A stretch of 64,000 nt of DNA from Dysgonomonas sp. (GCA_047972895.1 JBKEBA010000070.1:50-64049), one strand, 5' to 3'; shown: positions 5,552 to 42,149, counted from the stretch's first letter. Translations and numbers: made by a program. Notes: generated by a model from the letters alone, not told the origin.

Positions 5552-6580
5552 ATGGAAACAATGCAATTAGTACCAGTAAAAAGCAATCATAGAGATGTAA
5601 TGATTCCACAATCCCTTCCTCATCAAGATATAATAGAAATTACACATACCTGTGACTACAATCCAAGCCCTTTCATAGAAGCTAATACCAAAGAAGCAAG
5701 TTTACATCATTTAAAGCATGAATGTATTGTACCTGTCTTTTCTAAAGATAATGAGGTTACTATCAGCCATACTAACTTTATAGAAACAGTTTGGGATGCT
5801 GCAAGTAGTTTCTTTCCAAATGAGACTATTTTACAGCCAGATATTAGAGTTTCTCATGTAGTCAAAGGTAGGATTCCAGAAGCTATAAATAAACCTGTCA
5901 GTCAGCTTTTAGAGAGTGATAAGACTATTTACTATGAAAGGATGGCTTTCTGCTTTGAAGTGCCTACAATTTATCAGGATATAGAAGGAAACAGGCTTAA
6001 TCTTTCCATTGGTGGAGTAAGAGCCTTAAACCATGAAAACCTCTATTCTAAAAAGAGTGTTGAGAAATTCAAGATATTTATAGGTTTTAAGAATCTTGTT
6101 TGCACAAATCTATGTGTATCTACAGATGGGTATAAATCAGAATTGAGGGTTATGAGTTTGGAAGAATTATTCAAGCATTCTCTATTACTATTTCAGCAAT
6201 ATAACCCTAACAGGCATTTGCAACTTATGTCTTCTTTTCAGAATTCTTACTTAACAGAACATCAGTTTGCACAGTTGATAGGAAAAAGTAAGCTTTATCA
6301 GTGTTTACCTAATGCACAAAAGAAGTTATTACCTACTATGGAATTTGGAGATACCCATATTAATGCAGTAGCCAAAGCCTATTACAATGATAAGAATTTC
6401 AAGATAGAAGAGGGTGCAGATGCTATTAATCTCTGGAAGGTCTATAATCTCTTTACAGGGGCTAATAAGAACAGTTATATTGACAATCTATTGGATAGGT
6501 CTTTGAATGCAACTGATTTAGTAGAAGGCATTAATAGAGCTTTGCATGGTGATAGGGAGTATAGGTGGTTTATTGAGTGA
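5552..6580 (+). CDS. Hypothetical protein (342 aa); size and context resemble the DUF3871 family found in Bacteroidales mobile elements
   Basis: Long ORF. The family assignment is from memory only and is not verifiable here. Confidence 0.4.
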   Translation: METMQLVPVKSNHRDVMIPQSLPHQDIIEITHTCDYNPSPFIEANTKEASLHHLKHECIVPVFSKDNEVTISHTNFIETVWDAASSFFPNETILQPDIRVSHVVKGRIPEAINKPVSQLLESDKTIYYERMAFCFEVPTIYQDIEGNRLNLSIGGVRALNHENLYSKKSVEKFKIFIGFKNLVCTNLCVSTDGYKSELRVMSLEELFKHSLLLFQQYNPNRHLQLMSSFQNSYLTEHQFAQLIGKSKLYQCLPNAQKKLLPTMEFGDTHINAVAKAYYNDKNFKIEEGADAINLWKVYNLFTGANKNSYIDNLLDRSLNATDLVEGINRALHGDREYRWFIE

Positions 6581-6678
6581 AATTTGGAAATACTGTTGTA
6601 AAGTACATAATTTGCTTCTACAATTATACTCTTTTTCTATACCTTTGAATAATTAATATTCATGAAAACTATAATCAT

Positions 6679-7173
6679 ATGGCTGAAATAATAGAAAAAC
6701 AAGAATTACCTGTTGTCATAACAAAAGTAAAAATAGGAAAAAGAGATTTATCAAAGAGCTTGATAGACCAAATTCCTAAAGGAATATTTATTTGCCATAT
6801 GGGTAAAAGACAGGGAAAAGAAGATATATGTTATGGATTACCTTTGGTTATTGGAGAAAATGGATATGTGAATGAATTATATTATGATTCTTCAAAACCA
6901 TTTAAAACAGATGGTACAATAATTGGCTTTATAGATAGCCCTAAAATTAATTCTAGTGGAGCATATCAATCTTTAGCTTTTTATGCTGATGAAAATTACA
7001 TAAGAAAAGATGTTATGACAAAGAATGGATATGTTGATGAAACCTTTTATAACTTTGGATATCCATATTACTTTATAATATGGTATGATGAAAATAATAA
7101 ATTAAAGAAAGGCTATATTGACAAATGGACAATGGTGCAATTAGATATAAAAATTGAACAAATCATTATATAA
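6679..7173 (+). CDS. Hypothetical protein (164 aa)
   Basis: ORF co-oriented with the island genes. No motif recognised. Confidence 0.4.
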   Translation: MAEIIEKQELPVVITKVKIGKRDLSKSLIDQIPKGIFICHMGKRQGKEDICYGLPLVIGENGYVNELYYDSSKPFKTDGTIIGFIDSPKINSSGAYQSLAFYADENYIRKDVMTKNGYVDETFYNFGYPYYFIIWYDENNKLKKGYIDKWTMVQLDIKIEQIII

Positions 7174-9945: not shown

Positions 9946-11178
9946 TCAAGTTTCCTTTGTCAACTTCATTTCACGCTGCCTAATTATGCTTTTACCCAGT
10001 TTTTGGAACGGTTTTTCTATCAATCTATATGTTAAGTAAGATATCCCGACAGTAAGTATAAGAACTATTATATATCTAATTCCCAGATTCAATAAACTCC
10101 CACTTACCGTATCTGTAGATACATAATCTAGAAAATCAAATTTAAATAACCAATGAAGTACAACAAAATGCACTAAATACATACTATAGCTAATTTTCCC
10201 TAAGAACCGGCTTATAAAATTAACAAACAAGACAAATTCCTTTTGAGCTAAAGCATATCCAAGAGCAATGAAGACTATCGAAAATAGGATATGTTGTGAG
10301 TATAATTCACGTCCGGTAGCTATCTGTAATAAAAAACTCAGCGGAAAGAATAAAAGAATCACAGGATGTATTTTCCATTGTTCCTTTGGTGTATAAACAC
10401 TCAAATACTACGGAACAAGTTCCGCAGGTTGAAAGGTAAAAGGATAAATCCTTTTGCGTTAATACCTGTTTGAAAACAGGGGTTTTCTTTTCCCTAACGG
10501 GAAAATTCATCCGATAACTTGAAAAATAAAATATAAAAGGATACCACAAGCAAACACAGGTAGATGGTTAGGCAAGAAATAATACAGATAATCTTTCATC
10601 AAATGGTCGTCACCAAAAGGTATTTCTTTTATTAGAAAAGTGATACTGTGCTGGACTAAGACAGCTATAATAAATGCAATGCAGGCATGATTCAGATTCT
10701 TTATATATTTGAACAGAAACGGAACCATACAATAAAACATCATCTCATTAGTAATAGTCCACCCTCCGGGCACAACAGTATTTATCCAATAAGGACTTAA
10801 GCCATGAAGAAAAAAAGCACTTGAAATCACCGACCATACAGTTACATCAGGATGATAATCCGTCAACAAATATCCTATATACAAACGTTCTATAACATTA
10901 TATGCTATAGCAATATAAAACATAGGAGCAATGCGAAAAAAACGGCGGATAAAGAAATTTGAGTAAACATTGCTCTCTTGCTTAGATCTGTTATCTAGCG
11001 AAAGAAACAATGTAAATGCACTAACAATAAAAAATAATTGAACACCTCGACCACCATTCCCTACAATAGATTGTATAATATCCGGATAGTTATTTGTACC
11101 ATAACCGACACAATGCACCATTAAAACCGCAAGGACAGCAAATCCCCTGAGAGCATCAATATAACCGAGCTTATTCAT
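9946..11178 (-). pseudogene. Acyltransferase family 3 (OafA-like) membrane protein, broken into three frames
   Basis: The N-terminal part (10507-11178, 'MNKLGYIDALRGFAVLAVLMVHC') and the C-terminal part (9946-10404, '...SYSMYLVHFVVLHW') are in different frames. A third frame (10307-10549) bridges them. Confidence 0.6.
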
Positions 11179-11955
11179 TTATGTATCTAACCTGAACAGT
11201 TTCTTTGCGTTTTCCGTAGTAATTTCACCCACTTCCTCTACACTCACATTATATATTTCGGCTAGTTTATCTGCAACTTTTACCGTATATGACGATTCAT
11301 TCCGTTTACCTCTATATGGAACAGGAGCCAGATATGGAGCATCTGTTTCAATAATAATATGTGATAAATCTGTTAGTTTAAGGACGGCCGACAATGTCGA
11401 ATTTTTAAAAGTAACAACACCATTAATACCTAACAAGAAATTATTCAACGATAGAATATCACTTAGTTCCAGTTCCGTTCCACCGAAACTATGGAATACC
11501 CCTCGCAACTTTTCAACACCCACATTTTTTATACATGCTATACATTCCGATATGGCATCGCGCGAATGAATGGCGACAGGTAGATCAAATTCAATACTCC
11601 AACGCAATTGCTCCTCGAAAGCAAGTTTCTGCTCTTTTTCGTATGCCTTATCCCAATATAGGTCTAAACCAACTTCACCAATAGCAATATATTTACGATT
11701 ATTGAATTGTTGTCGAACCAAGTCCAATTGATTAATATAATCACCATCTACACTTGTAGGATGCAGACCCATCATAGGAATACAATAATCATTATACCTA
11801 TCAGACACAGCATGTATCCTCTCTATCGATGCCACATCAATATTAGGCAACAAAATTCTCTCTACGCCGACTCGTTTTGCCCTACCAATAACATCATCCA
11901 GGTCATTTTCGAACTCCTCTGAATAAATATGCGAATGTGTATCAATTATCTTCAC
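11179..11955 (-). CDS. tatD: TatD-family metal-dependent hydrolase/DNase
   Basis: 'IIDTHSHIY', 'GEVGLDLYW', 'PVAIHSRDA' and 'ETDAPYLAP' motifs. Confidence 0.85.
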   Translation of the reverse strand: MKIIDTHSHIYSEEFENDLDDVIGRAKRVGVERILLPNIDVASIERIHAVSDRYNDYCIPMMGLHPTSVDGDYINQLDLVRQQFNNRKYIAIGEVGLDLYWDKAYEKEQKLAFEEQLRWSIEFDLPVAIHSRDAISECIACIKNVGVEKLRGVFHSFGGTELELSDILSLNNFLLGINGVVTFKNSTLSAVLKLTDLSHIIIETDAPYLAPVPYRGKRNESSYTVKVADKLAEIYNVSVEEVGEITTENAKKLFRLDT

Positions 11956-12649
11956 TTTCCAGTTTCTCCCTCTCTTCTTTTCTTAAATAATACACAACGC
12001 CATATTCCTTGCAACGTTCTATTCGCTCTTTATTCGGTAGATTGGCAAACGCAGTTTCTATCTGATTCCAGAGTGTAGCCAAGACATAATCTATATCCTC
12101 ACGCTGCTCACTTAGAACATCCAGCTGGCGTGTAGTCGTATTCTGGTGAGTTTTCTGCGCAAAGTATGCATCTTTGAATTGCGAAAAAGCAACATTTACA
12201 CGTGCTATTGTAGGATTATATATTGGTGCTCCTCCTTGTGCCAGACGAGCCTGCTCTCCTTTTACCATACTATCGCCCCAATAAAGTAGAGAATCATGAC
12301 TAGTAAGATCAGGAACAGTAAAATTTTCAGGTTCGAGATTATACAATTGCTTAAGCTCTTTTTTTATCTCATTACGAACAACGCAAAAGTTTAATACCTG
12401 AATAAAATGAGAGATATATAATCTGGCATTTTTCACAAGTTTCTGAAACTTTCTATTAGCTGAAGCCTGTATATCAAGACTTGAACGATAACGAATCTGG
12501 GCACTCTCAAAATTCCTGAGCATCAACTCGAGTTTAGGTATATCAAACGATATAACATTTTGCCCGAATAGAGAGTTATGTTTCTCTATCGCTGCTCTCA
12601 ACGCCCTTATTCGTGCATTGTCTGTATTAGGTAAACGACGATATGGCAT
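11942..12649 (-). CDS. Conserved hypothetical protein
   Basis: 235-aa ORF overlapping the tatD start by 14 nt, which suggests an operon. No motif recognised. Confidence 0.5.
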   Translation of the reverse strand: MPYRRLPNTDNARIRALRAAIEKHNSLFGQNVISFDIPKLELMLRNFESAQIRYRSSLDIQASANRKFQKLVKNARLYISHFIQVLNFCVVRNEIKKELKQLYNLEPENFTVPDLTSHDSLLYWGDSMVKGEQARLAQGGAPIYNPTIARVNVAFSQFKDAYFAQKTHQNTTTRQLDVLSEQREDIDYVLATLWNQIETAFANLPNKERIERCKEYGVVYYLRKEEREKLESEDN

Positions 12650-17485: not shown

Positions 17486-20455
17486 TTATCTCGCTTCCAA
17501 TATCCTCACAGGACCCAATAAACCGGATTTAGACATTGGCGAATCTTTAGTATAACGGCGAGCCGTTGTAAAAGTATATGCGCTGTCAGGTGGCAAACTA
17601 AGATCACCTATAAGCCTATTCACCCAGAGGTTAACCACCTCTATCTTTAGTTTATTTTCTCCTTGTTTTACCTGATTACTTATATTTAGCTGCCATGGGT
17701 GTGTCCATACAGTTCCAATTTCTTTATCATTCAGCCAGACTTTAGCCATTACGTTTACTTCTCCCAAATCAAGATAGATTTTTCCCGACACATTATCCGC
17801 TTCAAATCGCTGTTCGTAAATGGCTGTACCTGAATAATATTTGATACCATCATCTGGTGAAGTAGTCCAGTCCAGGAGCTTATCTAATGTAATCTTTTCG
17901 GGTCCGCCCCATATAGGATCAAACGAGACATCCCACGGTTTATCTAGCATTTGAACAGCAGTAAACGATGCAAAATTATTACCCTGTGATGACGAGCTAC
18001 CATGCTTACGAAATACTACAAAATAACTTTGATCGACATAGAACTGCATCGGGATAATTGTTTGCCCGTCTTGCAAAATATAATGCTCAATTTCCCTGAT
18101 TTCTCCTGTTACAGCATCCCACAATTCAGGGATCATATTACTTATACGGAAAGTACATTCTGTGCTGACTATTTCTCCTGAGCGGTTAGCCACGAAGTAT
18201 ATATCATATCCGTCTGATGTACGGTGAGCATAACGCAGATTACCATCAGCAATAAAGTCTTCGGGAATATTCATTTTAGTAAGGATACGTGCTGTGCAAT
18301 TGTAGTCAGGATAGAGATTATCCTGATTGTTTAGGATTTCTTCTCCCCATATGATTTTTCCTTTACCTATTATGCGTTCTTCCATCCCCTGAGGAATTGA
18401 ACTTTCTCCCCATATTTCTTTTACCAGAGAAGCGATTTCCTCATCGCATTGTGGATAATTCTGTAAGCTCGGCGATTTCTTAGGAGGCATGCCTACGACT
18501 GTTGCCCCATTTACTATCAGTTCCTTTATCTTCCGAAGTATTTCCGGCGTCATAGTCTCCAAGAGAGGAAGTGCAAGCAAATGATATTGAGCTCCACTCG
18601 AGAATACTATCTTTCCGTCTTTTACAGAAGCACTGTATAAGAAGCTCGGAGGACACGCGTCAAAAGCATACCCCTTCTTATCAGGAAGAAATTCACTTCC
18701 TTCATAAGCAGAAACAGGAGCACGGAATACGTGAGGATTACCTTCGGGACAGAAATAAAGAATATCTGAGACTGTCCGCCCTTGTTGCATCATAAACTGA
18801 CTACGCGAAAGGTAAGTGTGATAAGCCTTTCCCATTTCCCACCACGTTTGGTTACGATCCCAATGTACACCATAAGGCCCCATTGTCATTCCGGGACGCA
18901 AACTATCAGCAAGGCATTGATGTTGGAAAGTATGGAACATAAACCTATTTACACCTCCTGCCAATGCCCAATCAGTTTGGTTCTTCATCTTGCCCGGATA
19001 CTGATCCCAACCATCAAACTGTGCGGTAAAACTTTCCGCAGGCACTACCGACTGCCCTTTTAGATGAGCAATTGATGTACCTTCTGCTAAACTGAAAGAG
19101 GTATTAAATCCGTAGCCTTCGCTCCAATATTCACACATAGGAACATCGGCAATAGCAGCAAGTTCTAAATCTGCTGTGGGATTCATATCATATGGTTCTA
19201 TAGATAAGCCCAGCCCAAACTTATGAGCATATTCCCTGATATAAGTAGCATGATTCTTAAGGATCAATTCCTGTACAGTCTTACGTAAATCCCACAGAAA
19301 TCTTTCACTTAATTCTTTACTACCAACTATTACACCGGAATATGCCGGATAATAAGGTTGAGGATCGTATCCTCTGCGTGATTTAAATTCATCTCGAAAT
19401 TTGTCTGTCCAATTCTGCGCCCCCATCTCCCAGCTATCCATATGCAGCATTGTTAGCCCTCCCGAAGGGGATTTTGATGTTCTCTTTTGGAAACCTATAT
19501 GACGGAAAAGCTCACCCACAAAATTATCTAAATGATGAGAAATAGCTATCGTATCCAGCTTATCAGATTCAAATCCTAATCCCGGAGTAGGTGCAGGCCG
19601 TGTGATTGCTCCGTTGTTCCGTACTCCGAATCTCATTATTGTCCATTTGCCGGGAGGGAGTTCACCCTCTATACTTCCATCGGGTTCCATCCATGAAGTA
19701 ATTTCTATTATATCATTTGGATTTACGGCTGCCCCTGTAGCATCGGGGTATGAAGATTGCATTGGCAGAAATTGTTTTACTCCGGGTGCTGAACTATATG
19801 GAGCTCTATAATAAAGTGCTTTTTCGTCAGTATCAGTAATAGTCTCACTTCCCTCACAAGCAGGAAATGCCAACACGGCAACATCTTCATAATATTCCAG
19901 CCATTGCTTGTGAAGTTCGGGCGTAAAACTACCTTCTCCGAAAAAAGGCGCTTTAGGCATAGGTTGAGGTATTACGGTATTTTTCAGTTCCGAACTGTTT
20001 ATTGTAATACTACTTGAGACCAAATGCTTCATCGATTCTTCAGGTTTTACCCAGGGGCCTCCGCTTCCAGTCCAGCCGGGACCTACCCCGAGAGTCATCT
20101 CTACTCCTAGCCTTTCACATTCGCTTACTGCATGTTTAAACATATCTTTCCATTCGGTACTAAGCATATCTACTTTGCCCCGAGGTACACCTACATTCAC
20201 TTCGAGAAAAATGACATGTGAAATTCCTACCCGAACCATAGACTCCAGATCTTTCGTCATGCCTTCCTTTGACATATTGCCATCCATGAAATACCAATAG
20301 ACACCGGATTTTGCAGATACCGGAGGATTTCTAAATCCTTCTTCCAACGATACATCAGCTTGCCCTATATTTCTGTCGCAATTCGACATAAAAAGGATAA
20401 ATATTAGACAAAAGACTAATGTAGAAGCACATATGCGAAAATATCTATAATTCAT
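17486..20455 (-). CDS. Large secreted glycoside hydrolase, GH106-like (putative alpha-L-rhamnosidase)
   Basis: The N-terminus 'FRNPPVSAKSGVYWYFMDGNMSKEGMTKDLESM' resembles Bacteroidales GH106-type enzymes. C-terminal jelly-roll segment 'VWLNDKEIGTVW'. Start set at 'MNYRYF...LFMSNC' (lipobox); the track's start is 20485. Confidence 0.55.
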   Translation of the reverse strand: MNYRYFRICASTLVFCLIFILFMSNCDRNIGQADVSLEEGFRNPPVSAKSGVYWYFMDGNMSKEGMTKDLESMVRVGISHVIFLEVNVGVPRGKVDMLSTEWKDMFKHAVSECERLGVEMTLGVGPGWTGSGGPWVKPEESMKHLVSSSITINSSELKNTVIPQPMPKAPFFGEGSFTPELHKQWLEYYEDVAVLAFPACEGSETITDTDEKALYYRAPYSSAPGVKQFLPMQSSYPDATGAAVNPNDIIEITSWMEPDGSIEGELPPGKWTIMRFGVRNNGAITRPAPTPGLGFESDKLDTIAISHHLDNFVGELFRHIGFQKRTSKSPSGGLTMLHMDSWEMGAQNWTDKFRDEFKSRRGYDPQPYYPAYSGVIVGSKELSERFLWDLRKTVQELILKNHATYIREYAHKFGLGLSIEPYDMNPTADLELAAIADVPMCEYWSEGYGFNTSFSLAEGTSIAHLKGQSVVPAESFTAQFDGWDQYPGKMKNQTDWALAGGVNRFMFHTFQHQCLADSLRPGMTMGPYGVHWDRNQTWWEMGKAYHTYLSRSQFMMQQGRTVSDILYFCPEGNPHVFRAPVSAYEGSEFLPDKKGYAFDACPPSFLYSASVKDGKIVFSSGAQYHLLALPLLETMTPEILRKIKELIVNGATVVGMPPKKSPSLQNYPQCDEEIASLVKEIWGESSIPQGMEERIIGKGKIIWGEEILNNQDNLYPDYNCTARILTKMNIPEDFIADGNLRYAHRTSDGYDIYFVANRSGEIVSTECTFRISNMIPELWDAVTGEIREIEHYILQDGQTIIPMQFYVDQSYFVVFRKHGSSSSQGNNFASFTAVQMLDKPWDVSFDPIWGGPEKITLDKLLDWTTSPDDGIKYYSGTAIYEQRFEADNVSGKIYLDLGEVNVMAKVWLNDKEIGTVWTHPWQLNISNQVKQGENKLKIEVVNLWVNRLIGDLSLPPDSAYTFTTARRYTKDSPMSKSGLLGPVRILEAR

Positions 20456-32792: not shown

Positions 32793-33464
32793 ATGATTAC
32801 AGTAGAAGGGATAACAAAAAGTTTTGGTAGCCTCAACGTATTAAAGGGTATAGATCTACACGTAAAGAAAGGTGAAATAATATCTATCGTGGGTGCCAGT
32901 GGTGCTGGAAAGACTACCCTTCTGCAAATAATCGGAACACTGGACAAGGCTGACAGCGGCTCGGTATATATAAACAATGAAAATCTAAGTAAACTTAATG
33001 ACTCGCGCTTGTCGGACTTCAGAAATAAAAATATCGGATTTGTTTTTCAGTTCCATCAACTATTACCAGAGTTTACTGCTCTTGAAAATGTGATGATTCC
33101 AGCACTGATAGGAAAAACGAAAGAATCTCAAGCTAAAAGTAGAGCTAAAGAACTCTTGGATATGCTTGGCTTGGCAGATCGTATAGAACATAAACCCAAC
33201 GAACTGTCGGGTGGCGAGAAACAACGAGTGGCTGTTGCTCGTTCATTAATCAACAATCCTGCAGTAATTTTAGCAGACGAGCCCTCCGGTAGCCTGGATA
33301 CAGAAAACAAAGAAGAACTGCATCAACTTTTTTTCAAGTTGAGAGATACCCTCGGACAAACATTTGTTATAGTCACGCATGATGAACATTTAGCCTCTAT
33401 CACAGACCGTACAGTCCACATGAGAGACGGACTCATAATAAACAACGAACCTGTTGCCTTGTAA
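32793..33464 (+). CDS. lolD: ABC transporter ATP-binding protein, LolD/MacB-type
   Basis: Walker A 'GASGAGKTT', signature '[13 protein letters not shown]', Walker B 'ILADEP'. Confidence 0.8.
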
Positions 33465-33466
33465 TA

Positions 33467-34237
33467 ATGAATATATCTGCTGATAAACTTCTTTATCAGA
33501 TAGCCCTCACGAAAATACCGGGAGTAGGTGACATCACAGCCCGAAACATACTACAAGTAGTCGGAGATGAAGAAGAAATATTCAAATCGAATAGAAAAAC
33601 ATTATCAAAAATACAGGGACTGGCCTCTAGACTTGTAGATGAAATCCTAAATCCAATAGTTTTAAGAAAGGCCGAAGAGGAATTAGCTTTCATCGAAAAA
33701 AGTAATATATCTACGTTTTTCATCTCCGATAAAAATTATCCTCATCGCCTGAAAGAATGTATAGATGCCCCTATTCTACTCTATTTCAAAGGAAATACAG
33801 ACTTCAATGCCGATAAAGTTATCAGTATTGTAGGTACACGCAACTCGACTACTTACGGAAATAATTTCTGTGACTCTTTTATAGAAAGTGTGTCCTCTAA
33901 CCTACCAGACACACTAATCATCAGTGGATTGGCTTATGGAATCGATATACAGGCACACAAATCTGCATTAAAGTATAATTTACCTACAATCGGAGTGCTT
34001 GCACATGGATTGGACAGAATTTATCCTCCTGTTCATCGGCAGACAGCAAAAGATATGCTCAACAACGGAGGAGTACTTACAGAGTTTCCGAGTAAAACGG
34101 AACCTGATCGTTTCAATTTTGTACGTAGAAACCGTATTGTTGCAGGTATGGCAGATGCTATAATTGTAGTAGAATCAGATAAAAAAGGAGGTTCTCTTAT
34201 TACAGCAGAAATCGCTAATTCTTATTATAAAGCGTAA
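33467..34237 (+). pseudogene. dprA: dprA (smf) 5' fragment: codons 1-253 plus 3 element-derived codons and a stop
   Basis: 'LTKIPGVG' SAM-like domain. Rossmann core 'IVGTRNST.YG', 'SGLAYGID' and 'DKKGGSLITAEIA'. The protein ends prematurely at '...ANSYYKA*'. Confidence 0.9.
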
Positions 34238-34404
34238 AATTATTAGTAGTTCTTTTTTGTGTGTAAATTATTGATAATTATACATTTACACAGGATAAAA
34301 ATATTTATAATAACCTAATAATTAAACAGTTACATATTGTGTATATAAGATATTTTTAGTAACTTCAAGTAATAATTCAGTAAATAACCACTAAATTAAA
34401 AACT

Positions 34405-35301
34405 ATGGAGTTAGTAAATTACAATGATGTATCACAATTAAAGAACAGTATTTTTGATTGTATAGATGTTACCGAGAACACACGGAAAGAGTATCTGACC
34501 CGGATTAAACACTTTATCCATTTTGTAAAACTACACGGAATTAATTCCAATACTTATTTAGAGTATAAACGCTATTTAAGTTCTATCGACACGCTAAGTG
34601 TTTCCACAAAGAATAAGTATCTAATTTCCGCTAAGATTTTTATTGATGGTCTGAATAACTTACAACAATTCCCTTTCCAGATTAATACAAAAGTAAGAGG
34701 ATTTAAACAAAGTAAGCTACACAAGAAAGATGGTCTTTGTGATGAGGATATTTCTAAGATTGTAGATTATTGTTCTTCATTAGAACCAACAATTCAAAAC
34801 CTGCGATTAAAGTCTATTTTATCATTACTAATATTTCAAGGTTTGCGCCAAGTAGAAATAACACGTCTAAATGTAACCGATATTAACATGAAAGATAAGA
34901 CCGCTTTTATTATCGGAAAAGGACAGGACGATAAAGAGCTTATTCATTTGCATCCCTCAACCATTAAAGTATTAAAAGAATATCTACACACAAATAGAAT
35001 AAGAGAGGGGGCAGTATTCCGAAGCGGAAGTAATTTCTCTTCGGGTAGTCGATTAACGACAAAATCCATTCGAGAGATAATCAAAAAAGTTCTAAACGAA
35101 TTAAATATTGACGGAAGTACCCACGGCTTCCGTCATTTTTTTATAACCAAATTAATAAAATCCTATAAAGGTGAATTATTGACCGTTTCTAAATACAGCC
35201 GTCATAGAAGTATTCAGATGTTAGAAGTCTATAATGACGAGATAATAAGAGAACAGGATTTGCCGCGTTTTTACAACGTATTTAGCGATATTACACTATG
35301 A
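34405..35301 (+). CDS. Tyrosine recombinase, XerC/D-like (298 aa)
   Basis: N-terminal SAM-like core-binding region. Catalytic 'GLRQVEITRL', 'HGFRHFFITKL' and 'SRHRSIQMLEVY'. Confidence 0.8.
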   Translation: MELVNYNDVSQLKNSIFDCIDVTENTRKEYLTRIKHFIHFVKLHGINSNTYLEYKRYLSSIDTLSVSTKNKYLISAKIFIDGLNNLQQFPFQINTKVRGFKQSKLHKKDGLCDEDISKIVDYCSSLEPTIQNLRLKSILSLLIFQGLRQVEITRLNVTDINMKDKTAFIIGKGQDDKELIHLHPSTIKVLKEYLHTNRIREGAVFRSGSNFSSGSRLTTKSIREIIKKVLNELNIDGSTHGFRHFFITKLIKSYKGELLTVSKYSRHRSIQMLEVYNDEIIREQDLPRFYNVFSDITL

Positions 35302-35864
35302 GTGATATAAATACATACGACAGAAATATTTATTGTTTAGAGGGTAACTGGAATAAGAATCCACGAAGCCATCAGAGTGTAAAACCGATGTTGGAATTAC
35401 TCCGCACTTTTGCCAATATCAAATATGTATATTATAAATGTGATACTAAAGATGAATTCTTTTACCGCCTGCAACAATTTACAAAAGGAACTTATAAAAA
35501 CTATCCTATACTATATTTAGCGTTTCACGGACGCACAAATCGAATTATTGTAGAAAATCAACATATAGCATTAAAAGAGATCGCAACGGCTTTAGAGGGC
35601 AAATTAGATAACAAAATCGTACATTTTGGAAGTTGTTCTACTTTGCGTACCTCGGAAAAGAATATCCAAAATTTTATAATTGCTACAAATTGCCAGTTTA
35701 TTTCGGGTTATCGAAAATTTGTAGATTATATTGATGCTTGTGCGTTTGAATTACTATATTTTGATTTGTTGCAAAAATATAAGTCTGTAAGGAAAATTGA
35801 TTCTGAAATTTTCAGTTTGTCTTCTCAACTGACAAATAACAAATTGAAATTTGTTATGTATTGA
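35298..35864 (+). CDS. Hypothetical 188-aa protein with a His...Cys dyad in a caspase/CHAT-like strand context
   Basis: An ATGA start/stop overlap with the recombinase indicates translational coupling. 'ILYLAFHGRTN' ... 'KIVHFGSCST'. The fold assignment is inference only. Confidence 0.45.
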   Translation: MSDINTYDRNIYCLEGNWNKNPRSHQSVKPMLELLRTFANIKYVYYKCDTKDEFFYRLQQFTKGTYKNYPILYLAFHGRTNRIIVENQHIALKEIATALEGKLDNKIVHFGSCSTLRTSEKNIQNFIIATNCQFISGYRKFVDYIDACAFELLYFDLLQKYKSVRKIDSEIFSLSSQLTNNKLKFVMY

Positions 35865-35870
35865 AGCAAA

Positions 35871-35897
35871 AACGCCAGTAATTAAAATACTGGCGTT
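35871..35897. terminator. Bidirectional hairpin terminator between convergent genes
   Basis: 'AACGCCAGTA'-attaaaa-'TACTGGCGTT', with T-rich runs on both strands. Confidence 0.7.
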
Positions 35898-35923
35898 CTT
35901 GTTTTTATGTATTTGTCAATATA

Positions 35924-37840
35924 TCAATATCCTGGATTTTGTGTCATTTTAGGGTTAGCATTCATCTCTGATATAGGGATAGGCAATAAAAGTTTATTTT
36001 CCGAAATTCCTAGCACTTGTTTTGCTTTATCGAAACGTTTTAGAGCATAGAAATATGCTCCCTCATTTTTTAAATCTTCTTTCCATTCATTTAATAATGA
36101 ATCTTCAATATTAGAAGAACTGTTAATTGGAGTACGACCGTTTCTTTCTCTAACTTGGTTTAAATAAACAATAGCTTGGTTGGTATTACCTAATTTAAGG
36201 CTCGCTTCCGCAGCCATTAATAAGATTTCGGAATAACGACAAACAGCTATGTTATCCCCTTTTTTAATTAAATCTCGATAAGGAATACTCGAATAGTCAT
36301 CAGAGTTTGGCAATTCTAAAATATTTTCCTTATTATTTCCTGTATATATAGAATTAATATCACTGCTTAGGGAGAACTTGCCACTATTGATTATAATATT
36401 AGTAGCTTCCAATGCTCTATTATATTCTTTGTTTTGCAAGAATGCTCGTACTTGGATAGCTTTTGCAAAATATTTAGAGCATTCAAATTGATAGCTACTT
36501 TCTGGTAAATATTGATAAGCTACCTCTAGTTCATTAATAATAAAATCCAAGACTTCTTTTTGAGAAGTGCGAGCAAAATAAGGGTTATCCATGATGTTTG
36601 AAGATGTAACTAAAGGTATATCCCCCCATAGAGCTACCATATTCAGATACTTATATGCTCGATAAGTTCTTGAATAATATTGATATTTTTTGAACCAATC
36701 TAAATTAGTTTCATTCGATTTCTCTGTAAGTACATTATCATATCTTATCGCCTTATATGAAGAACTCCACAAATTACTTGGTAAAGCCATATAAGATGTA
36801 ATATTATGCTCATAAATTGATTTTAGCTCATAGTAACGGCTAAGATTATCACTACTAACTGTATTTGTATATATTCCGTCAAAAAGATATTGGTTTTGGA
36901 TGAATGTGTATAGTTGAGCCACAGATGCGGTACAGAATTGCTTTACCCGTTCTTCTGATTCAAATACGTTCTCTTCTGTGATAACATCATTCGGTACACT
37001 TTCTTCGTATGAGTCTCCTATTTGCCCATCTCCATCACCATCAATAAACAATTCAAAACTTCCAATTTCGACAGTTTTACCTAATTCTTCATATCTTTTC
37101 TTGATATTTTCTTTTATATTGGAATAACTTAGTCCAAGACTTGATTCTGCAATTTTATTTTTAGTGTCTTGAGTTATCGTTCCATCAGAAAGGTCGTTTC
37201 TGAGCGAACTCATAAATTCTGTAAATTGAGCATCACTTCTTTCATTTAATAAGATAGATGATATTGCTATTAATATATTTGCAGATGTATTATTAGCTGT
37301 TATACTGGTTTCCTCTGGGGTTATTGGTTGATTGGTTATTAGGAAAGCGTTTAACAACTCTTTTTGAGCTTGTTGTTTTGCTTCTTGAAAGTTTTTACCC
37401 GAAGATACGAGATTCATAACACGGGGCATTTCTAAGTGCGTTAATATATTTACATTTACATTGGCTTTATCAACATTGTCAATAGAACTTATTGCCTCTA
37501 AAGAAATCGGAGCATCAGAAAGACGTCCAGTATATTCATTAAAATAAAATCCATTTACTGAAAGCTTAACATATTTAGAGACTAAAGATGTTGATGTATT
37601 TATTGAAAATGCACCTTCATTGTCTGTTTTGGCTTCGAATACACGTCCTGTTGCATTTAGATTATTGTCCAATTCATAGATGCTAACAGAAGACCCTGAA
37701 ACAAAAGGACCTTTTTCAACCAAGCCCTTAACACTACCAATGCTTACACTCCCTGAATTATCATCATCACTGCTACATGAGATAAAACATAAAAGAGAGA
37801 TTATTCCGATTAGTAATGAAAATAATAGATTTTTTTTCAT
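35924..37840 (-). CDS. SusD/RagB-family lipoprotein with a roughly 270-aa N-terminal extension (carboxypeptidase-regulatory-like beta-sandwich)
   Basis: Lipobox 'CFISC'. SusD hallmarks 'ALWGDIPLV', 'RYSEILLMAAEA' and the C-terminus 'LLPIPISEMNANPKMTQNPGY'. There is no adjacent SusC/TonB-dependent transporter gene. Confidence 0.75.
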   Translation of the reverse strand: MKKNLLFSLLIGIISLLCFISCSSDDDNSGSVSIGSVKGLVEKGPFVSGSSVSIYELDNNLNATGRVFEAKTDNEGAFSINTSTSLVSKYVKLSVNGFYFNEYTGRLSDAPISLEAISSIDNVDKANVNVNILTHLEMPRVMNLVSSGKNFQEAKQQAQKELLNAFLITNQPITPEETSITANNTSANILIAISSILLNERSDAQFTEFMSSLRNDLSDGTITQDTKNKIAESSLGLSYSNIKENIKKRYEELGKTVEIGSFELFIDGDGDGQIGDSYEESVPNDVITEENVFESEERVKQFCTASVAQLYTFIQNQYLFDGIYTNTVSSDNLSRYYELKSIYEHNITSYMALPSNLWSSSYKAIRYDNVLTEKSNETNLDWFKKYQYYSRTYRAYKYLNMVALWGDIPLVTSSNIMDNPYFARTSQKEVLDFIINELEVAYQYLPESSYQFECSKYFAKAIQVRAFLQNKEYNRALEATNIIINSGKFSLSSDINSIYTGNNKENILELPNSDDYSSIPYRDLIKKGDNIAVCRYSEILLMAAEASLKLGNTNQAIVYLNQVRERNGRTPINSSSNIEDSLLNEWKEDLKNEGAYFYALKRFDKAKQVLGISENKLLLPIPISEMNANPKMTQNPGY

Positions 37841-37875
37841 GCTGTATTTATTTTTTGAAAGTTTTGGCTCTGTTT

Positions 37876-38169
37876 TTACTCGAAAGACATTTCTATTTTT
37901 TCTATCAATTTCGATGATGGAAAAAGTAAGTCTAATAAAAGTAATAAAGATTCTTCGGAAGTTGGGGTAAGTCCATGATATATTAATTTGCTCCCTTCAA
38001 ATACCAACATATCAACACCTCCTCCAGTATTTACAGATAGTTTATCATGTTTATAATAGAAAATAGAAATGTTATCTTTTTCTACATGATGGCAGGTGTC
38101 TTTTTTTATTTTCTTAAATCCTAAATTTTCAAAACACTTGCTTATATTAAAGTCTGTTTGTATAAACAT
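37876..38169 (-). CDS. Hypothetical small protein (97 aa)
   Basis: ORF between the Rep-like and SusD-like genes, on the same strand. Confidence 0.4.
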   Translation of the reverse strand: MFIQTDFNISKCFENLGFKKIKKDTCHHVEKDNISIFYYKHDKLSVNTGGGVDMLVFEGSKLIYHGLTPTSEESLLLLLDLLFPSSKLIEKIEMSFE

Positions 38170-38275
38170 ATAATTTATTCTGTATTGTAATTTTTATTTC
38201 TATTTACTAATAATATTAATTATTCTTACTTATTAGAGTAGGGAAAAGTTGTGTATTTTTGTATTCTGTGGAATT

Positions 38276-39292
38276 CTATTTACTGTATAATCTTGTATCG
38301 TGAACTATATTTATAGTCTCTGCAAATTTAGATTTTAATTCAAGTACATTTTCAGTTTCTTTTAGCAAATCAAATTCTTTCTCTAAAGATTTCTTTAGTT
38401 TTTTTACAGCTCTGTATTCTTTCACTCCCTCTTTATCGTCGAGTCTGTATTCTTCAATAAAAGAGCGATACAAGTCATAAGTATCAGATGTTACAAATAT
38501 ATAATTTTTTATTTCTTCAAACGATTTTCCTGCATGATTTTTACCTAAATCTCTTAATACAATTTTCTCAAACACATTTCTAAGGATGCGAGCAAATCTC
38601 GAATAGAAGCGAATATGTAATAAATGCTCTGCGGTAAATGTTGAATCTTTTATATTCTTAAACCCCATTGCTGAATATTTTCCTGATTTTAGTTCTACTT
38701 CATAACGCAAAATATTAGAGAGTATCAATGTTTTTTTCTCAACTGAAAGAGGATGTCTTGCTTCAAATGTCTTATCGTAAAATTTAATTATGTAATCCGT
38801 GTATTGACATAATTTACCTCGTAAATGAGGACTATTTTTGAGAGGTCTCATATAAATGAAAGGTCTTTTTTTATAGAGGTGTACCATATTTATATATCGC
38901 ATTGGCTCTTTTGAAACTTCTATATTCACCCCTATTTCAATACTTGTAATTATAATTTTATTTAAAGAAATATCCAACCTTTTCCCCAAATCAGATATCG
39001 CTTGTTGTGCATCATTTGCTGTAAATGTGGAATAGTTTTCTTTTCTTTTAAATTTGTGCAATGAACCATGCCCACTTAATACCCAGCGTTTTTCTTCCTT
39101 ATTTCGCACTTTAACCAATTTGACTTCAATTTCCATTGTTTCATTAAGAGTTGCTCCCCATACAGAAACGCCCCTTTTATCAAGTGCTATAATATCTAAT
39201 TCTTCTTTTGAGGTTTTTGCATATTTCAAAAAAGTCTTTTCTAACTTTTCAACATCTACATCATCTACGTAAAATACTATTTTATCTATCAT
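38276..39292 (-). CDS. Replication-initiator-like protein (resembles the phage/plasmid gene II/X or Rep_trans rolling-circle families)
   Basis: Start set at 'MIDKIVFYV...'. N-terminal 'MID...' and 'LSGHGSLHKFKRKENYSTF' resemble the 'GNPxKFLQGHNxFG' region of gpII-like Reps. This is recalled, not searched. Confidence 0.4.
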   Translation of the reverse strand: MIDKIVFYVDDVDVEKLEKTFLKYAKTSKEELDIIALDKRGVSVWGATLNETMEIEVKLVKVRNKEEKRWVLSGHGSLHKFKRKENYSTFTANDAQQAISDLGKRLDISLNKIIITSIEIGVNIEVSKEPMRYINMVHLYKKRPFIYMRPLKNSPHLRGKLCQYTDYIIKFYDKTFEARHPLSVEKKTLILSNILRYEVELKSGKYSAMGFKNIKDSTFTAEHLLHIRFYSRFARILRNVFEKIVLRDLGKNHAGKSFEEIKNYIFVTSDTYDLYRSFIEEYRLDDKEGVKEYRAVKKLKKSLEKEFDLLKETENVLELKSKFAETINIVHDTRLYSK

Positions 39293-39381
39293 GGCTACGA
39301 TTATAAAGTTCAATAATGATAAATATTTCAAACTTTAATGTAGCTATAAAAATAATACGATGCAAATCGGCTTATTAAGAT

Positions 39382-41655
39382 TTATTGAGCATCAACACAT
39401 TCAAATAAATCTTGTTCTTCATTATATGCCATGATTAAAGTAATATATTCCCGACTATATCCACCAAAACCATTTTTAGCTCGATAATCTACAATACATT
39501 GCCATCCGTTTTTTGTTTTTCCAATACATTTTACTTTTTCAATCTTCAAACTTTCCGGTTCTCGTAGTAATTTATAAAGTAAGGTAGTTGCATTTTCCTT
39601 TGCCCAAAATTCAATATTATCTTTATCTTCACTTCCATAAAGGATAAAGCGAGCATACTGCTTATCATATTTCCGACACGCTTTTTCATACTCTTTTCTT
39701 GATATTGGTAATTTATTGCCTGTGGAGTCAATTTGTTCCATAGTAACCCACCAATTCTCAAATAGAAGTTTTTGAATTTTCTTATGGGATACTTTCCTAT
39801 TGCTAAATACATCTCTTACTTTATCCAATTCCATCAATTCATTATATAAGCTATCAAATTGTGTTTTATATAGATTTGCAAAATCCGAATCGGATAATAC
39901 CTTTTGCGGTTCGGGTTCTCGTGTTTCTACGTAATTATCGGTTATTGCAGAATTAGAGTTATCTAAATTTTTAGTTTCCGATATTGGGGGCAAATTGTGT
40001 CCTGCAATAATAACAAATAAGAAGAACAGGAAAAAGCTAACTCCGAAAATAAATAATCTCTTTCTTTTTATATTCAGCTTTTTCGGTAGTACGTATTGTG
40101 GCTTTATCATTCCTACAATAAAAATTACAGGTTGTCCCAAAGCTAAAAACATCAATATAACAGCAAGTATTTTCATAAAATTGTTTGTTGAACGTTTGAT
40201 AAGTATAATTAAAACCTCTCGAATAAACTGCTTGAACAAATACTCCACCCTACTTATATCATTTCTTGTTTCCTCAATCATTTTCTTTAAATCAATAACA
40301 TTATCAAGCGAAGATTGCTTTAAACTTTCTTTCAAATATTTGATCTCTTTTCTTAATATACCATTTTCTCTTGTAAAATTTTTAATCTCTACATCACACC
40401 TATGTCCTTCTTTCGCTACATGGTCAACTGTATATCCTTTGCGTAGTAATGATACTAAGTCTTCTTTCCATTTTTCCCGTTGATTAATATTCTTTCTATT
40501 TAAAGAGAACAATTCTTGTTTTTCCTCAATTTCTTTCTCTAGACTTTTCTTGTTAGATTTTTGATTAACAATATACCATTCAAAATTCTCTGTCTTCTGT
40601 AAGACATCCCAAACAATCGCATCTGCTCGAAAGTTATTTATATTGATATGCTCATCATAATATAATTTTCTTGAAGCACAAGTAATGCCTTGTAGTTTGC
40701 TTTTACATATTCCACATTTAATAAGAGGTTTTAATGGATAAATGAACTTCCTTGTTCTTCTCCCATATATCTCGCGTTTATCTTCAATAATATTCTCAAC
40801 CTTGTCGAATAAATCTCTTGATATAATTGCAGGAACTGTACCTTGCCATTTTCCGTATTTACGTTCTCCAATATAATTTTTTCTATGCAACAAGCGACCT
40901 ACATTTGAATCCTCCCAGAGTTTACCTAGTGGACTTGGTATTTTTCTACCATTCAAGAAATCGGCAATCTTAGTAAAAGACCATTTTTCATTAACATATT
41001 TGTCAAATATAAGCTTTACTGTTTCTGCTTCAACCTCATTTATCTCAATATAAGATTTGTTTCCTCGTTGTACTACTTTATAGCCATAAACCATTCTACC
41101 TCCAACATATCTATGAGGGTCGTTCTCAAATACATATTTTTTCCCTCTTTGCATTCTTTTTGTAATGTCACTAAGTTCTTGTTCTATATGCACTGATAAA
41201 AATGAGATATGAGTATCTGTGATCTTATCTACTTCTAATGTATCTAAATTTAAAGTAGTTAATTTATGATGAATAAAATGTATAGGTTTTTTTAAAATAT
41301 TGAAAAATTCAAGATGAGTAAACAAAGAAGCTTTTCTTCTGGAAAGACGAGACATTTCCCAAATGAAAATCATTTCAATTTGTTCTCTTGTTTTAGGATT
41401 TTGACAAGCTTCTTTTAGATTTAATAATGATTCGGAATCTTCGACACGAATTAAAGAACCTGTTTCGTTTCCCTCATTATCCAATTCTTTTATAAATTGA
41501 GGTCGATCACCTGATATCTTTTCTCCAAAATAAAATTTATCAGGTATTATATAACCCATTTTTTCAGCAGCTTCTTCAATCGCATTTTTTTGAGATTCTA
41601 AATCTTGTTGATTAGAAGAGACACGGAGTAAGGCAGCTGCAATCTTTTCTTCCAT
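39382..41655 (-). CDS. Large serine recombinase fused in frame to a 2-TM, roughly 265-aa C-terminal domain
   Basis: Start set at 'MEEKIAAALLRVSSNQQD' (catalytic Ser). 'SRLSRR', recombinase domain 'GGRMVYGYKV', zinc ribbon 'CGICKSKLQG' and a coiled coil. From nt 40176 downward: 'MKILAVILMFLALGQPVIFIVG...LFIFGVSFFLFFLFVIIAG' plus a soluble domain. Confidence 0.8.
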   Translation of the reverse strand: MEEKIAAALLRVSSNQQDLESQKNAIEEAAEKMGYIIPDKFYFGEKISGDRPQFIKELDNEGNETGSLIRVEDSESLLNLKEACQNPKTREQIEMIFIWEMSRLSRRKASLFTHLEFFNILKKPIHFIHHKLTTLNLDTLEVDKITDTHISFLSVHIEQELSDITKRMQRGKKYVFENDPHRYVGGRMVYGYKVVQRGNKSYIEINEVEAETVKLIFDKYVNEKWSFTKIADFLNGRKIPSPLGKLWEDSNVGRLLHRKNYIGERKYGKWQGTVPAIISRDLFDKVENIIEDKREIYGRRTRKFIYPLKPLIKCGICKSKLQGITCASRKLYYDEHININNFRADAIVWDVLQKTENFEWYIVNQKSNKKSLEKEIEEKQELFSLNRKNINQREKWKEDLVSLLRKGYTVDHVAKEGHRCDVEIKNFTRENGILRKEIKYLKESLKQSSLDNVIDLKKMIEETRNDISRVEYLFKQFIREVLIILIKRSTNNFMKILAVILMFLALGQPVIFIVGMIKPQYVLPKKLNIKRKRLFIFGVSFFLFFLFVIIAGHNLPPISETKNLDNSNSAITDNYVETREPEPQKVLSDSDFANLYKTQFDSLYNELMELDKVRDVFSNRKVSHKKIQKLLFENWWVTMEQIDSTGNKLPISRKEYEKACRKYDKQYARFILYGSEDKDNIEFWAKENATTLLYKLLREPESLKIEKVKCIGKTKNGWQCIVDYRAKNGFGGYSREYITLIMAYNEEQDLFECVDAQ

Positions 41656-41728
41656 AGTGACTTTTTTATTACTTTTATGAGGATAAAGATAATAAAAAAA
41701 GTACACCGAATAACTTTACGCAATATAA

Positions 41729-42094
41729 TACTGTAAAGATGTCTTTGCCCTTCCAGGAAAGATAAGCGATAAATATTCTCGTGGATGTAATAAACTAATA
41801 GCCTCACACAAAGCAGACCTGTTTCAATCCACAGAATATTTTCTACAACAAATGGGATGGGACAACGAAACAGAGAGAAAAAGAAAGGCTCCGCAACAAC
41901 AGGAACTATTCATCAATCTTACAGATGAGGAACAATCGATAAGAGACAAAGTAAAAGAAAAAGAACCTGTACATATAGACCAATTAGCTCGTGACCTGGA
42001 TTTACCTGCCTATCAATTATTTTCCACATTGCTAGAATTGGAAATGAAAGGTATTATAAAAAATCAGCCGGGAAACCTATATACATTAAACTAA
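41729..42094 (+). pseudogene. dprA: dprA 3' fragment (120 codons, no start codon of its own until 41852)
   Basis: The frame opens right after a stop at 41726-41728: 'YCKDVFALPGKISDKYSRGCNKLIASHKADLF...' through the C-terminal winged helix 'LFSTLLELEMKGIIKNQPGNLYTLN'. Confidence 0.85.
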
Positions 42095-42149
42095 AAAAGA
42101 CGCTGCAAGCACCAGCCTGCAGCATCTACTACCAATCTAAAACCTAAAA

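Follow-up and report, generated by a model that had tools for sequence, protein, structure and literature searches.

In the 64-kb stretch of DNA analysed here (hereafter the window), which comes from a metagenome-assembled genome (MAG) of Dysgonomonas sp., the dprA gene is split in two by a 7,506-bp island that ends in a gene for a large serine recombinase (LSR) (Table 1). An initial annotation had placed an in-frame cut at codon 253, and this reading holds. The open reading frame (ORF) of the upstream fragment (33467-34237) runs to ...EIANSY (the DprA reading extends to ...GGSLITAEIANSY), then into three codons of the element (YKA) and a TAA stop at 34235-34237. On the same strand, a frame that opens directly after a TAA at 41726-41728 reads YCKDVFALPGKISDKYSRGCNKLIASHKADLF... 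(YCKDVFALPGK...) to a stop at 42094 and codes for the remainder of the Rossmann fold plus the winged helix. Pfam finds HHH_5 at the start and DprA_WH at the end of the split protein, with positions 2-181 of the DNA_processg_A profile in the first fragment and positions 182-207 in the second; since these positions are contiguous across the break, the cut passes cleanly through a single gene. Removal of 34225-41730 in silico gives, as had been proposed, a 373-codon dprA with the normal domains (HHH_5, DNA_processg_A, DprA_WH), whose length and junction motif (EIANSYCKDVF) agree with those of intact Dysgonomonas orthologues. The MAG annotation names the N-terminal fragment DprA (MFV0419640.1) and replaces the C-terminal fragment by an 80-aa hypothetical protein.

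The expectation that relatives would carry an uninterrupted dprA with this junction is borne out. Among the best 120 relatives, all from Dysgonomonas, intact orthologues have a modal length of 373 aa (range about 353-380), and nearly all of these 120 closest sequences contain ANSYCKDVFA.PG at the junction position. The empty site AATTCATATTGTAAAGAC occurs in contigs encoding an intact, 90%-identical DprA, and the gene order of the empty-site relative (udg-lolD-dprA-117aa-DUF6249-sigma factor) is that of the window; the lolD neighbour is also present at the empty-site loci L001-L004 and at other interrupted loci. The closest empty alleles show 90-92% protein identity, a distance at which they are taken to come from other strains. 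No other dprA-like sequence was found in the window, which, together with the contiguous Pfam match, agrees with the earlier view that the halves derive from one gene and not from different paralogues. Both halves are still intact ORFs, with omega (dN/dS) of 0.06-0.08 against the nearest intact allele; the window-L001 pair is the only readable one, pairs of interrupted alleles being uninformative owing to saturated synonymous sites.

The inserted DNA has a G+C content of about 0.30, compared with about 0.37 in the flanks. The left junction (attL) reads AATTCT-TA-TTATAAAGCG and the right junction (attR) reads CAATATAA-TA-CTGTAAAG, and the two overlap in the dinucleotide TA only, with mismatches immediately on either side. 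The attP rebuilt from both arms, ACACCGAATAACTTTACGCAATATAA-TA-TTATAAAGCGTAAAATTATTAGTAGT, is an imperfect palindrome centred on TA with 21/27 dyad matches; in the rebuilt attP of four complete elements the value is 19-23/27, while random centres in the element give 7.6 +/- 2.4 (maximum 17 in 20,000). A scan of the window found the attP-arm motif only at the two element ends, and, apart from these arms, no long direct or inverted terminal repeats turned up in a repeat search. The predicted products of excision are an attB of GAAATCGCTAATTCTTACTGTAAAGATG / GAAATCGCTAATTCTTACTGTAAAGATGTCTTTGCC and an attP of ...CGCAATATAATATTATAAAGCG... / AACTTTACGCAATATAATATTATAAAGCGTAAAATT. A 2-bp overlap central in a pseudo-palindromic attP of ~50 bp is the architecture of serine integrase sites (PMC3556126, PMC3783163), whereas tyrosine recombinases require an identical overlap of 6-8 bp (PMC4111918). 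The TA-only overlap and the palindromic attP centred on it thus point to the LSR, and not to a tyrosine recombinase that the island also encodes, as the inserting enzyme, and the insertion at TA was almost certainly mediated by an LSR. Rfam and tRNA scans of the window gave no match, so the island does not lie at a tRNA.

The start ATG of the LSR gene (MEEKIAAALLRVSS) is at 41655, at the distance of 75 bp from the right junction that had been noted earlier. The encoded protein matches Pfam Resolvase (E = 1e-9) and Recombinase (E = 1.5e-18) and contains the catalytic motifs RVSSxxQ and SRLSRR, with R11, V12, S13, Q17, R103, S105 and R106 invariant in the family. A profile of the LSR family matches the SPbeta integrase (E = 1e-35) and also the Listeria LI/A118 integrase, the alignment spanning DBD2 and the coiled coil of both, and matches the gamma-delta and Tn3 resolvases with E-values of 1e-12 to 1e-13. 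The profile was required for these matches, as a single-sequence phmmer search of the LSR against PDB sequences found none; Pfam Zn_ribbon_recom (PF13408) likewise gave no match in close LSR homologues. An AlphaFold2 (AF2) model of an intact homologue contains long antiparallel helices (369-406 and 410-446), and Foldseek matches it to the SPbeta integrase (1e-17) and the Bxb1 integrase (3e-14). Domains, catalytic motifs and att layout together place the recombinase of the window, by prediction, among the LSRs (serine integrases). Its full length is present in the sister elements described below and absent from the window copy, in which 62% of the ORF aligns to 596-aa homologues at 82-89% identity.

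Homologues of this LSR are few (596-631 aa, 42-89% identical) and occur almost only in Dysgonomonas-type assemblies, with relatives at four loci in representative genomes and three in JGI metagenomes. Wherever a flank is available, the LSR homologue adjoins a dprA fragment; Paludibacter-type relatives at 28-29% identity have no dprA within 10 kb. The LSRs of seven related lineages, 45-83% identical to that of the window, are all at the same dprA TA, and in all eight lineages the host sequence ends with the TA of one and the same Tyr codon and is followed directly by an element arm. The arms have diverged together with their recombinases, and the target position has stayed constant. At L025, the host DprA is only 58% (N-terminal fragment) and 36% (C-terminal fragment) identical to that of the window, and the neighbouring genes differ. 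That eight or more LSR lineages, some only 45% identical, converge on a single dinucleotide of dprA, even where the host DprA is itself only 36-58% identical, suggests selection on the target and argues against accident.

The family occupies its target in both orientations: four elements, including that of the window, have the LSR next to the C-terminal dprA fragment, and four have it next to the N-terminal fragment. Orientation differs even between the close relatives L005 and L007, and the L007 arm at the N-terminal fragment is the exact reverse complement of the window arm at the C-terminal fragment, showing that the L007 element is inverted relative to dprA. Both orientations are what a palindromic TA crossover dinucleotide predicts. 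In Bxb1, the orientation of integration depends on the central dinucleotide alone (Ghosh 2003, as cited in PMC3556126), and a non-palindromic centre leaves half of the synapses unproductive (PMC5062993). Between the window and L005, the elements are 83-97% identical at the nucleotide level, compared with about 71% for the host dprA, with saturated synonymous sites. Elements that are far more alike than their hosts indicate horizontal spread and independent integrations.

We therefore have good reason to regard the island as a deletion-bearing member of a family of LSR islands that insert at one position in dprA. The target would be the TA that begins codon Tyr253, within the conserved motif ...ANSY|CKDVF, entered by conservative site-specific recombination. 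One LSR dimer would bind the ~50-bp imperfectly palindromic attP of the circular island and another the attB in dprA; all four strands would be cut at the central TA with a predicted 2-nt stagger, and the half-sites would rotate before religation. Because TA is self-complementary, the reaction would be without polarity, and the island could enter either way round. Insertion truncates DprA after 253 residues, so that the winged helix and the final portion of the RecA-loading Rossmann fold are missing, and the host has very probably lost DprA function as a result. A later loss of 3.4 kb from the window island removed the LSR C-terminus and fused the remainder in frame to a membrane-protein gene, which probably leaves the dprA knockout fixed unless a recombinase is supplied in trans.

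This deletion is defined against the intact 10.9-kb sister element L005. By blastn, window 39254-40211 corresponds to positions 6004-6961 of the L005 reverse complement (L005rc), and window 40211-42094 to L005rc 10350-12230. Lost at the joint are LSR residues ~482-596 and three downstream genes, for a 132-aa Zn-ribbon protein and proteins of 249 and 308 aa. What remains is a chimeric ORF (39382-41706, minus strand; 774 codons from a listed GTG at 41706, 757 from the real ATG) composed of LSR residues 1-~482, 11 linker codons and a complete 259-aa protein with two transmembrane segments (two-TM protein), which has a gene of its own (264-268 aa) in L005 and L019 (87-92% aa identity). The fusion is in frame by chance; it is recorded in NCBI and Logan for the MAG, where the chimera is annotated as a 757-aa 'recombinase family protein', and the annotated recombinase of this genome is thus a truncated fusion. 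What is left of the LSR comprises its catalytic and recombinase domains, the zinc-ribbon region and the coiled coil. Every homologue conserves the missing part, which in the AF2 model of the intact homologue forms a beta-rich region right after the post-coiled-coil helices. The break aligns near residue 509 of the SPbeta integrase (545 aa), ahead of F532, a residue important for control by the directionality factor, and near residue 442 of the LI integrase (452 aa), which means that the minimal LSR core is kept. Neither the missing C-terminus nor a second LSR is encoded elsewhere in the window. From these features the window copy appears, on balance, unable to excise itself.

Table 1. Features of the interrupted dprA locus in the window, and related elements at the same dprA target (LSR identities are to the LSR of the window).
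Feature	Position	Strand	Basis and remarks
lolD-like ABC ATPase (host gene)	32793..33464	+	ORF; directly upstream of dprA
dprA 5' fragment	33467..34224	+	Codons 1-252 plus TA of Tyr253; DNA_processg_A and HHH_5
Crossover dinucleotide TA, attL	34223..34224		Sole attL/attR identity at the junction
Inserted island	34225..41730		7,506 bp including one TA copy; deletion restores 373-codon dprA
attP arm distal to LSR (P')	34225..34250	+	Contains GCGTAAAATTATT
Xer-like tyrosine recombinase, 298 aa	34405..35301	+	Pfam Phage_integrase; backbone gene
DUF6642 protein, 188 aa	35298..35864	+	Pfam DUF6642 E = 3e-35; partner of tyrosine recombinase
SusD/RagB-like lipoprotein, 638 aa (cargo)	35924..37840	-	Pfam SusD_RagB and SusD-like_3; ~290-aa N-terminal extension
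97-aa protein	37876..38169	-	ORF; 96% nt identical in L005; no family match
351-aa conserved island protein	38276..39331	-	Homologues in L005, L019, L023 (37-47% identity)
Two-TM membrane protein gene	39382..40161	-	259 codons from own ATG; read through from truncated LSR
Joint of ~3.39-kb deletion	40207..40215		blastn against L005-type element
LSR gene, codons 1-~482 only	40207..41655	-	Pfam Resolvase and Recombinase; C-terminal ~114 residues lost
attP arm proximal to LSR (P)	41703..41728	+	Contains TTTACGC
Crossover dinucleotide TA, attR	41729..41730		Junction comparison
dprA 3' fragment	41731..42094	+	Third base of Tyr253 to stop; DNA_processg_A 182-207 and DprA_WH
Element L005			LSR next to dprA C-fragment, divergent; LSR 82-83% identical; complete, 10,929 bp
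Element L025			LSR next to dprA C-fragment, divergent; LSR 47% identical; complete, 11,399 bp
Element L026			LSR next to dprA C-fragment, divergent; LSR 45% identical
Element L007			LSR right after dprA N-fragment, same strand; LSR 83% identical
Element L015			LSR right after dprA N-fragment, same strand; LSR 68% identical
Elements L017, L018, L016			LSR right after dprA N-fragment, same strand; LSR 65% identical
Element L006 (same contig as L008)			LSR right after dprA N-fragment, same strand; LSR 59-60% identical; complete, 9,871 bp

Besides the LSR module, the island contains a tyrosine recombinase gene and several genes of its own. The tyrosine recombinase is at least 90% identical in many Dysgonomonas and 71% identical in Bacteroides cellulosilyticus. 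This 298-304-aa protein is translationally coupled to the DUF6642 protein. The pair is conserved across Bacteroidales and invariably borders small variable islands, in many cases next to thiL. It is found at other loci in L019-L024; in L019, L020, L023 and L024 the far edge of the islands encodes an Arm-DNA-bind_5 tyrosine integrase plus HTH_17, and some of these islands (e.g. L019 and L023) also hold homologues of the 351-aa and two-TM proteins. The pair could serve in multimer resolution, in hotspot marking or as a second integrase. From its gene content, the window/L005 type is apparently such a tyrosine recombinase-DUF6642 island backbone in which the LSR module replaces the tyrosine integrase. 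No virion or packaging genes were found in the window island (PHROGs matches only the integrases), and no close relatives of the island or its LSR in phage records, plasmid records or IMG/VR; it is a small non-phage genomic island and not a prophage.

NCBIfam, PHROGs and PADLOC assign no function to the cargo genes of the window. The SusD-like gene is 92% identical at the nucleotide level in L005; its N-terminal extension of ~290 residues has no family match, and the island has no SusC partner for it. Homologues of the 351-aa protein (L005:15750-16781, L019:14165-15127 and L023:10208-11116; 302-351 aa) share an invariant KFYDKTFE motif. The protein has no significant family match, a four-sequence profile found no match in the PDB, and a single-sequence AF2 model was unusable (predicted local distance difference test score, pLDDT, of 37). 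The L023 homologue matches PF05144 (Phage_CRI) below the cut-off (E = 0.034), a sub-threshold hint that the family may be a G2P-like rolling-circle replication initiator for the excised island.

The other dprA-inserted elements have different cargo, including a small resolvase, AbiTii and a ShosA-like DprA homologue fused to an HAD domain. In the orientation group with the LSR on the N-terminal fragment side, the elements carry an AbiTii gene and a small resolvase/invertase of 207-211 aa (L016:7621-8499 and L006:16986-17609), which points to a role of the family in carrying defence genes. The L006 element (GCA_032477155.1, a Dysgonomonas MAG) encodes at 17699-19736 a 483-aa DprA-like protein fused to an HAD phosphatase domain (PADLOC ShosA 1e-70; Pfam DNA_processg_A 4e-54), preceded by a 197-aa gene that could be its ShosT partner; an island that disrupts dprA thus imports a DprA-homologous defence component.

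A strong G+C-rich hairpin (42098-42127; 13 pairs, with T-runs on both sides) separates dprA from the 117-aa gene that converges on it and is likely a bidirectional terminator. Terminator-like sites number 10, about three-fold the 3.6 +/- 2.3 found in shuffles, and add nothing beyond this hairpin; a sigma-70 promoter scan, which is ill-suited to Bacteroidota promoters, gave no excess over shuffles.

Two explanations that would remove the LSR or the insertion itself from the account are rejected. Integration by the tyrosine recombinase has in its favour that this gene lies 180 bp from the left junction and encodes a complete Phage_integrase catalytic domain; it is nevertheless highly improbable, since attL and attR overlap in 2 bp where 6-8 identical bp are needed, islands at unrelated loci also carry the tyrosine recombinase-DUF6642 pair (next to thiL or among other integrases), and four dprA-inserted elements lack the gene. 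What all dprA insertions have in common is the LSR with its adjacent arm. That the split reflects a faulty assembly, a concern for any contig from a metagenome bin, or a juxtaposition of dprA pieces from different paralogues is just as hard to sustain: the same architecture with base-precise junctions is found in independent assemblies of at least seven other samples, and the contiguous Pfam positions, the synteny of the empty site and the single dprA-like sequence in the window all speak for one interrupted gene.

A third explanation concerns what the island does now. It might be an active, reversible switch of dprA in this genome, excised on some cue by the truncated LSR fusion or by a second LSR elsewhere in the genome, much as phi10403S rebuilds comK and SPbeta rebuilds spsM, in line with the proposal in the initial annotation that recombination following DNA uptake could be switchable. 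Such a switch would account for two dprA halves that are intact, rebuild a 373-codon gene and have low omega; the truncated LSR keeps the catalytic, recombinase, zinc-ribbon and coiled-coil parts, up to LI residue ~442 of 452, and sister elements have intact LSRs. However, 114 conserved C-terminal LSR residues have been replaced by the two-TM protein, the position equivalent to SPbeta integrase F532, a residue needed for directionality control, lies beyond the break, three LSR-adjacent genes that are candidates for the directionality factor have been deleted, and the 64-kb window holds neither a second LSR nor a copy of the missing C-terminus. We consider an active switch unlikely here. The earlier interpretation thus stands insofar as an LSR element splits dprA and its excision would restore a 373-aa DprA; the switch is doubtful for the window copy, whose LSR has lost ~114 codons. 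The truncation, the second (tyrosine) recombinase and the family that uses the same TA both ways round had been missed.

Several points nonetheless weigh against the reading of the island as a deletion-bearing LSR element that has disabled DprA for good. The low omega and the intact halves imply either that insertion and deletion are recent relative to strain divergence or that excision continues, and they fit recent insertion and continuing selection through excision equally well. The truncated LSR might retain some activity, as its core is kept to LI residue ~442. Pfam, NCBIfam and PHROGs recognised no recombination directionality factor in any element, though LSR-adjacent genes of L005, among them that of the 132-aa Zn-ribbon protein, are candidates. 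The MAG origin of the sequence hides population heterogeneity, and cleavage is placed at TA from sequence comparison. As to the host, Dysgonomonas is not known to be naturally transformable. In Riemerella, which also belongs to the Bacteroidota, natural transformation requires DprA (PMC8459023).

The wider picture is more tentative. Dysgonomonas and related Bacteroidales may be hosts to dedicated LSR islands that home to one dprA codon through a natural palindromic TA, many with anti-phage cargo (ShosTA-like, AbiTii), and that either sabotage DprA-dependent transformation, thereby escaping 'chromosomal curing', or act as reversible switches of recombination-mediated DNA uptake; we hold this as a possibility, at somewhat less than even weight. 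If true, the palindromic TA makes integration orientation-blind and would also permit inversion of the island in place. Such elements would give a handle on whether Bacteroidales use DprA-dependent transformation and whether mobile elements oppose it, and an apparently natural palindromic core with orientation-free integration is relevant to the rules of serine integrase engineering. For the genome of the window, dprA is probably a fixed knockout.

Disruption of competence genes by LSR elements is a recognised theme, for which examples from Bacteroidota have been lacking; new here are dprA as a target gene, the host phylum and an apparently natural palindromic core. In the survey by Durrant et al. 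2022 and its supplement (PMC10083194), LSR targets are strongly enriched for 'establishment of competence for transformation', the target genes include those for ComK, ComG proteins, competence proteins and Mg chelatases, and many distant LSRs share one conserved site; the terms dprA, DNA_processg_A and Smf do not occur in its text or in the supplements consulted. Two reviews of the conflict between mobile elements and competence do not mention dprA as a target, and our literature search found no dprA-targeting element, in keeping with the earlier remark that no case had been described; its only matches for dprA with a serine recombinase were an island that carries a dprA gene and a paper that mentions dprA once.

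The likeness to phi10403S/comK and SPbeta/spsM drawn in the initial annotation is apt, as in each an LSR element splits a gene that precise excision would restore. A118 and phi10403S in comK share with the window an LSR, a ~50-bp pseudo-palindromic attP, a 2-bp crossover and a split gene of the competence pathway (PMC3556126). They are, however, complete prophages of Firmicutes, integrated in a single orientation through a non-palindromic GG core, whereas the window family consists of non-phage Bacteroidales islands of 7.5-11 kb that enter dprA in both orientations through a palindromic TA. The LSR of the window is also distant from the Listeria type, having no phmmer match in the PDB and at most 27% identity to any phage or plasmid record, and it is truncated. 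In SPbeta-spsM (SprA/SprB) and skin-sigK (SpoIVCA), an LSR element likewise splits a host gene, and in both sequence and structure the LSR family of the window is closest to the SPbeta integrase, albeit at 17-18% identity and with an extra C-terminal beta-rich region of ~110 residues seen in the AF2 model. Excision of SPbeta and skin is documented to be regulated and to involve a directionality factor, whereas no such factor was recognised in the window family. The island thus shares gene splitting with the conditionally excised elements; membership in that class cannot be claimed for it.

Closer to the host, the Bacteroidales islands L019, L020, L023 and L024 share with the window the tyrosine recombinase (71-94% identity), the DUF6642 protein, the 351-aa protein (37-40%) and the two-TM protein (92% in L019). 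They differ in using a tyrosine integrase at other loci (e.g. next to thiL), whereas the window and L005 use an LSR module at dprA. The indifference of the dprA family to orientation is explained by central-dinucleotide experiments with Bxb1 and phiC31, in which synapsis is blind to orientation and polarity comes from the central dinucleotide only. In those systems, palindromic or altered cores were engineered, whereas the palindromic TA of the dprA family is apparently a natural core.

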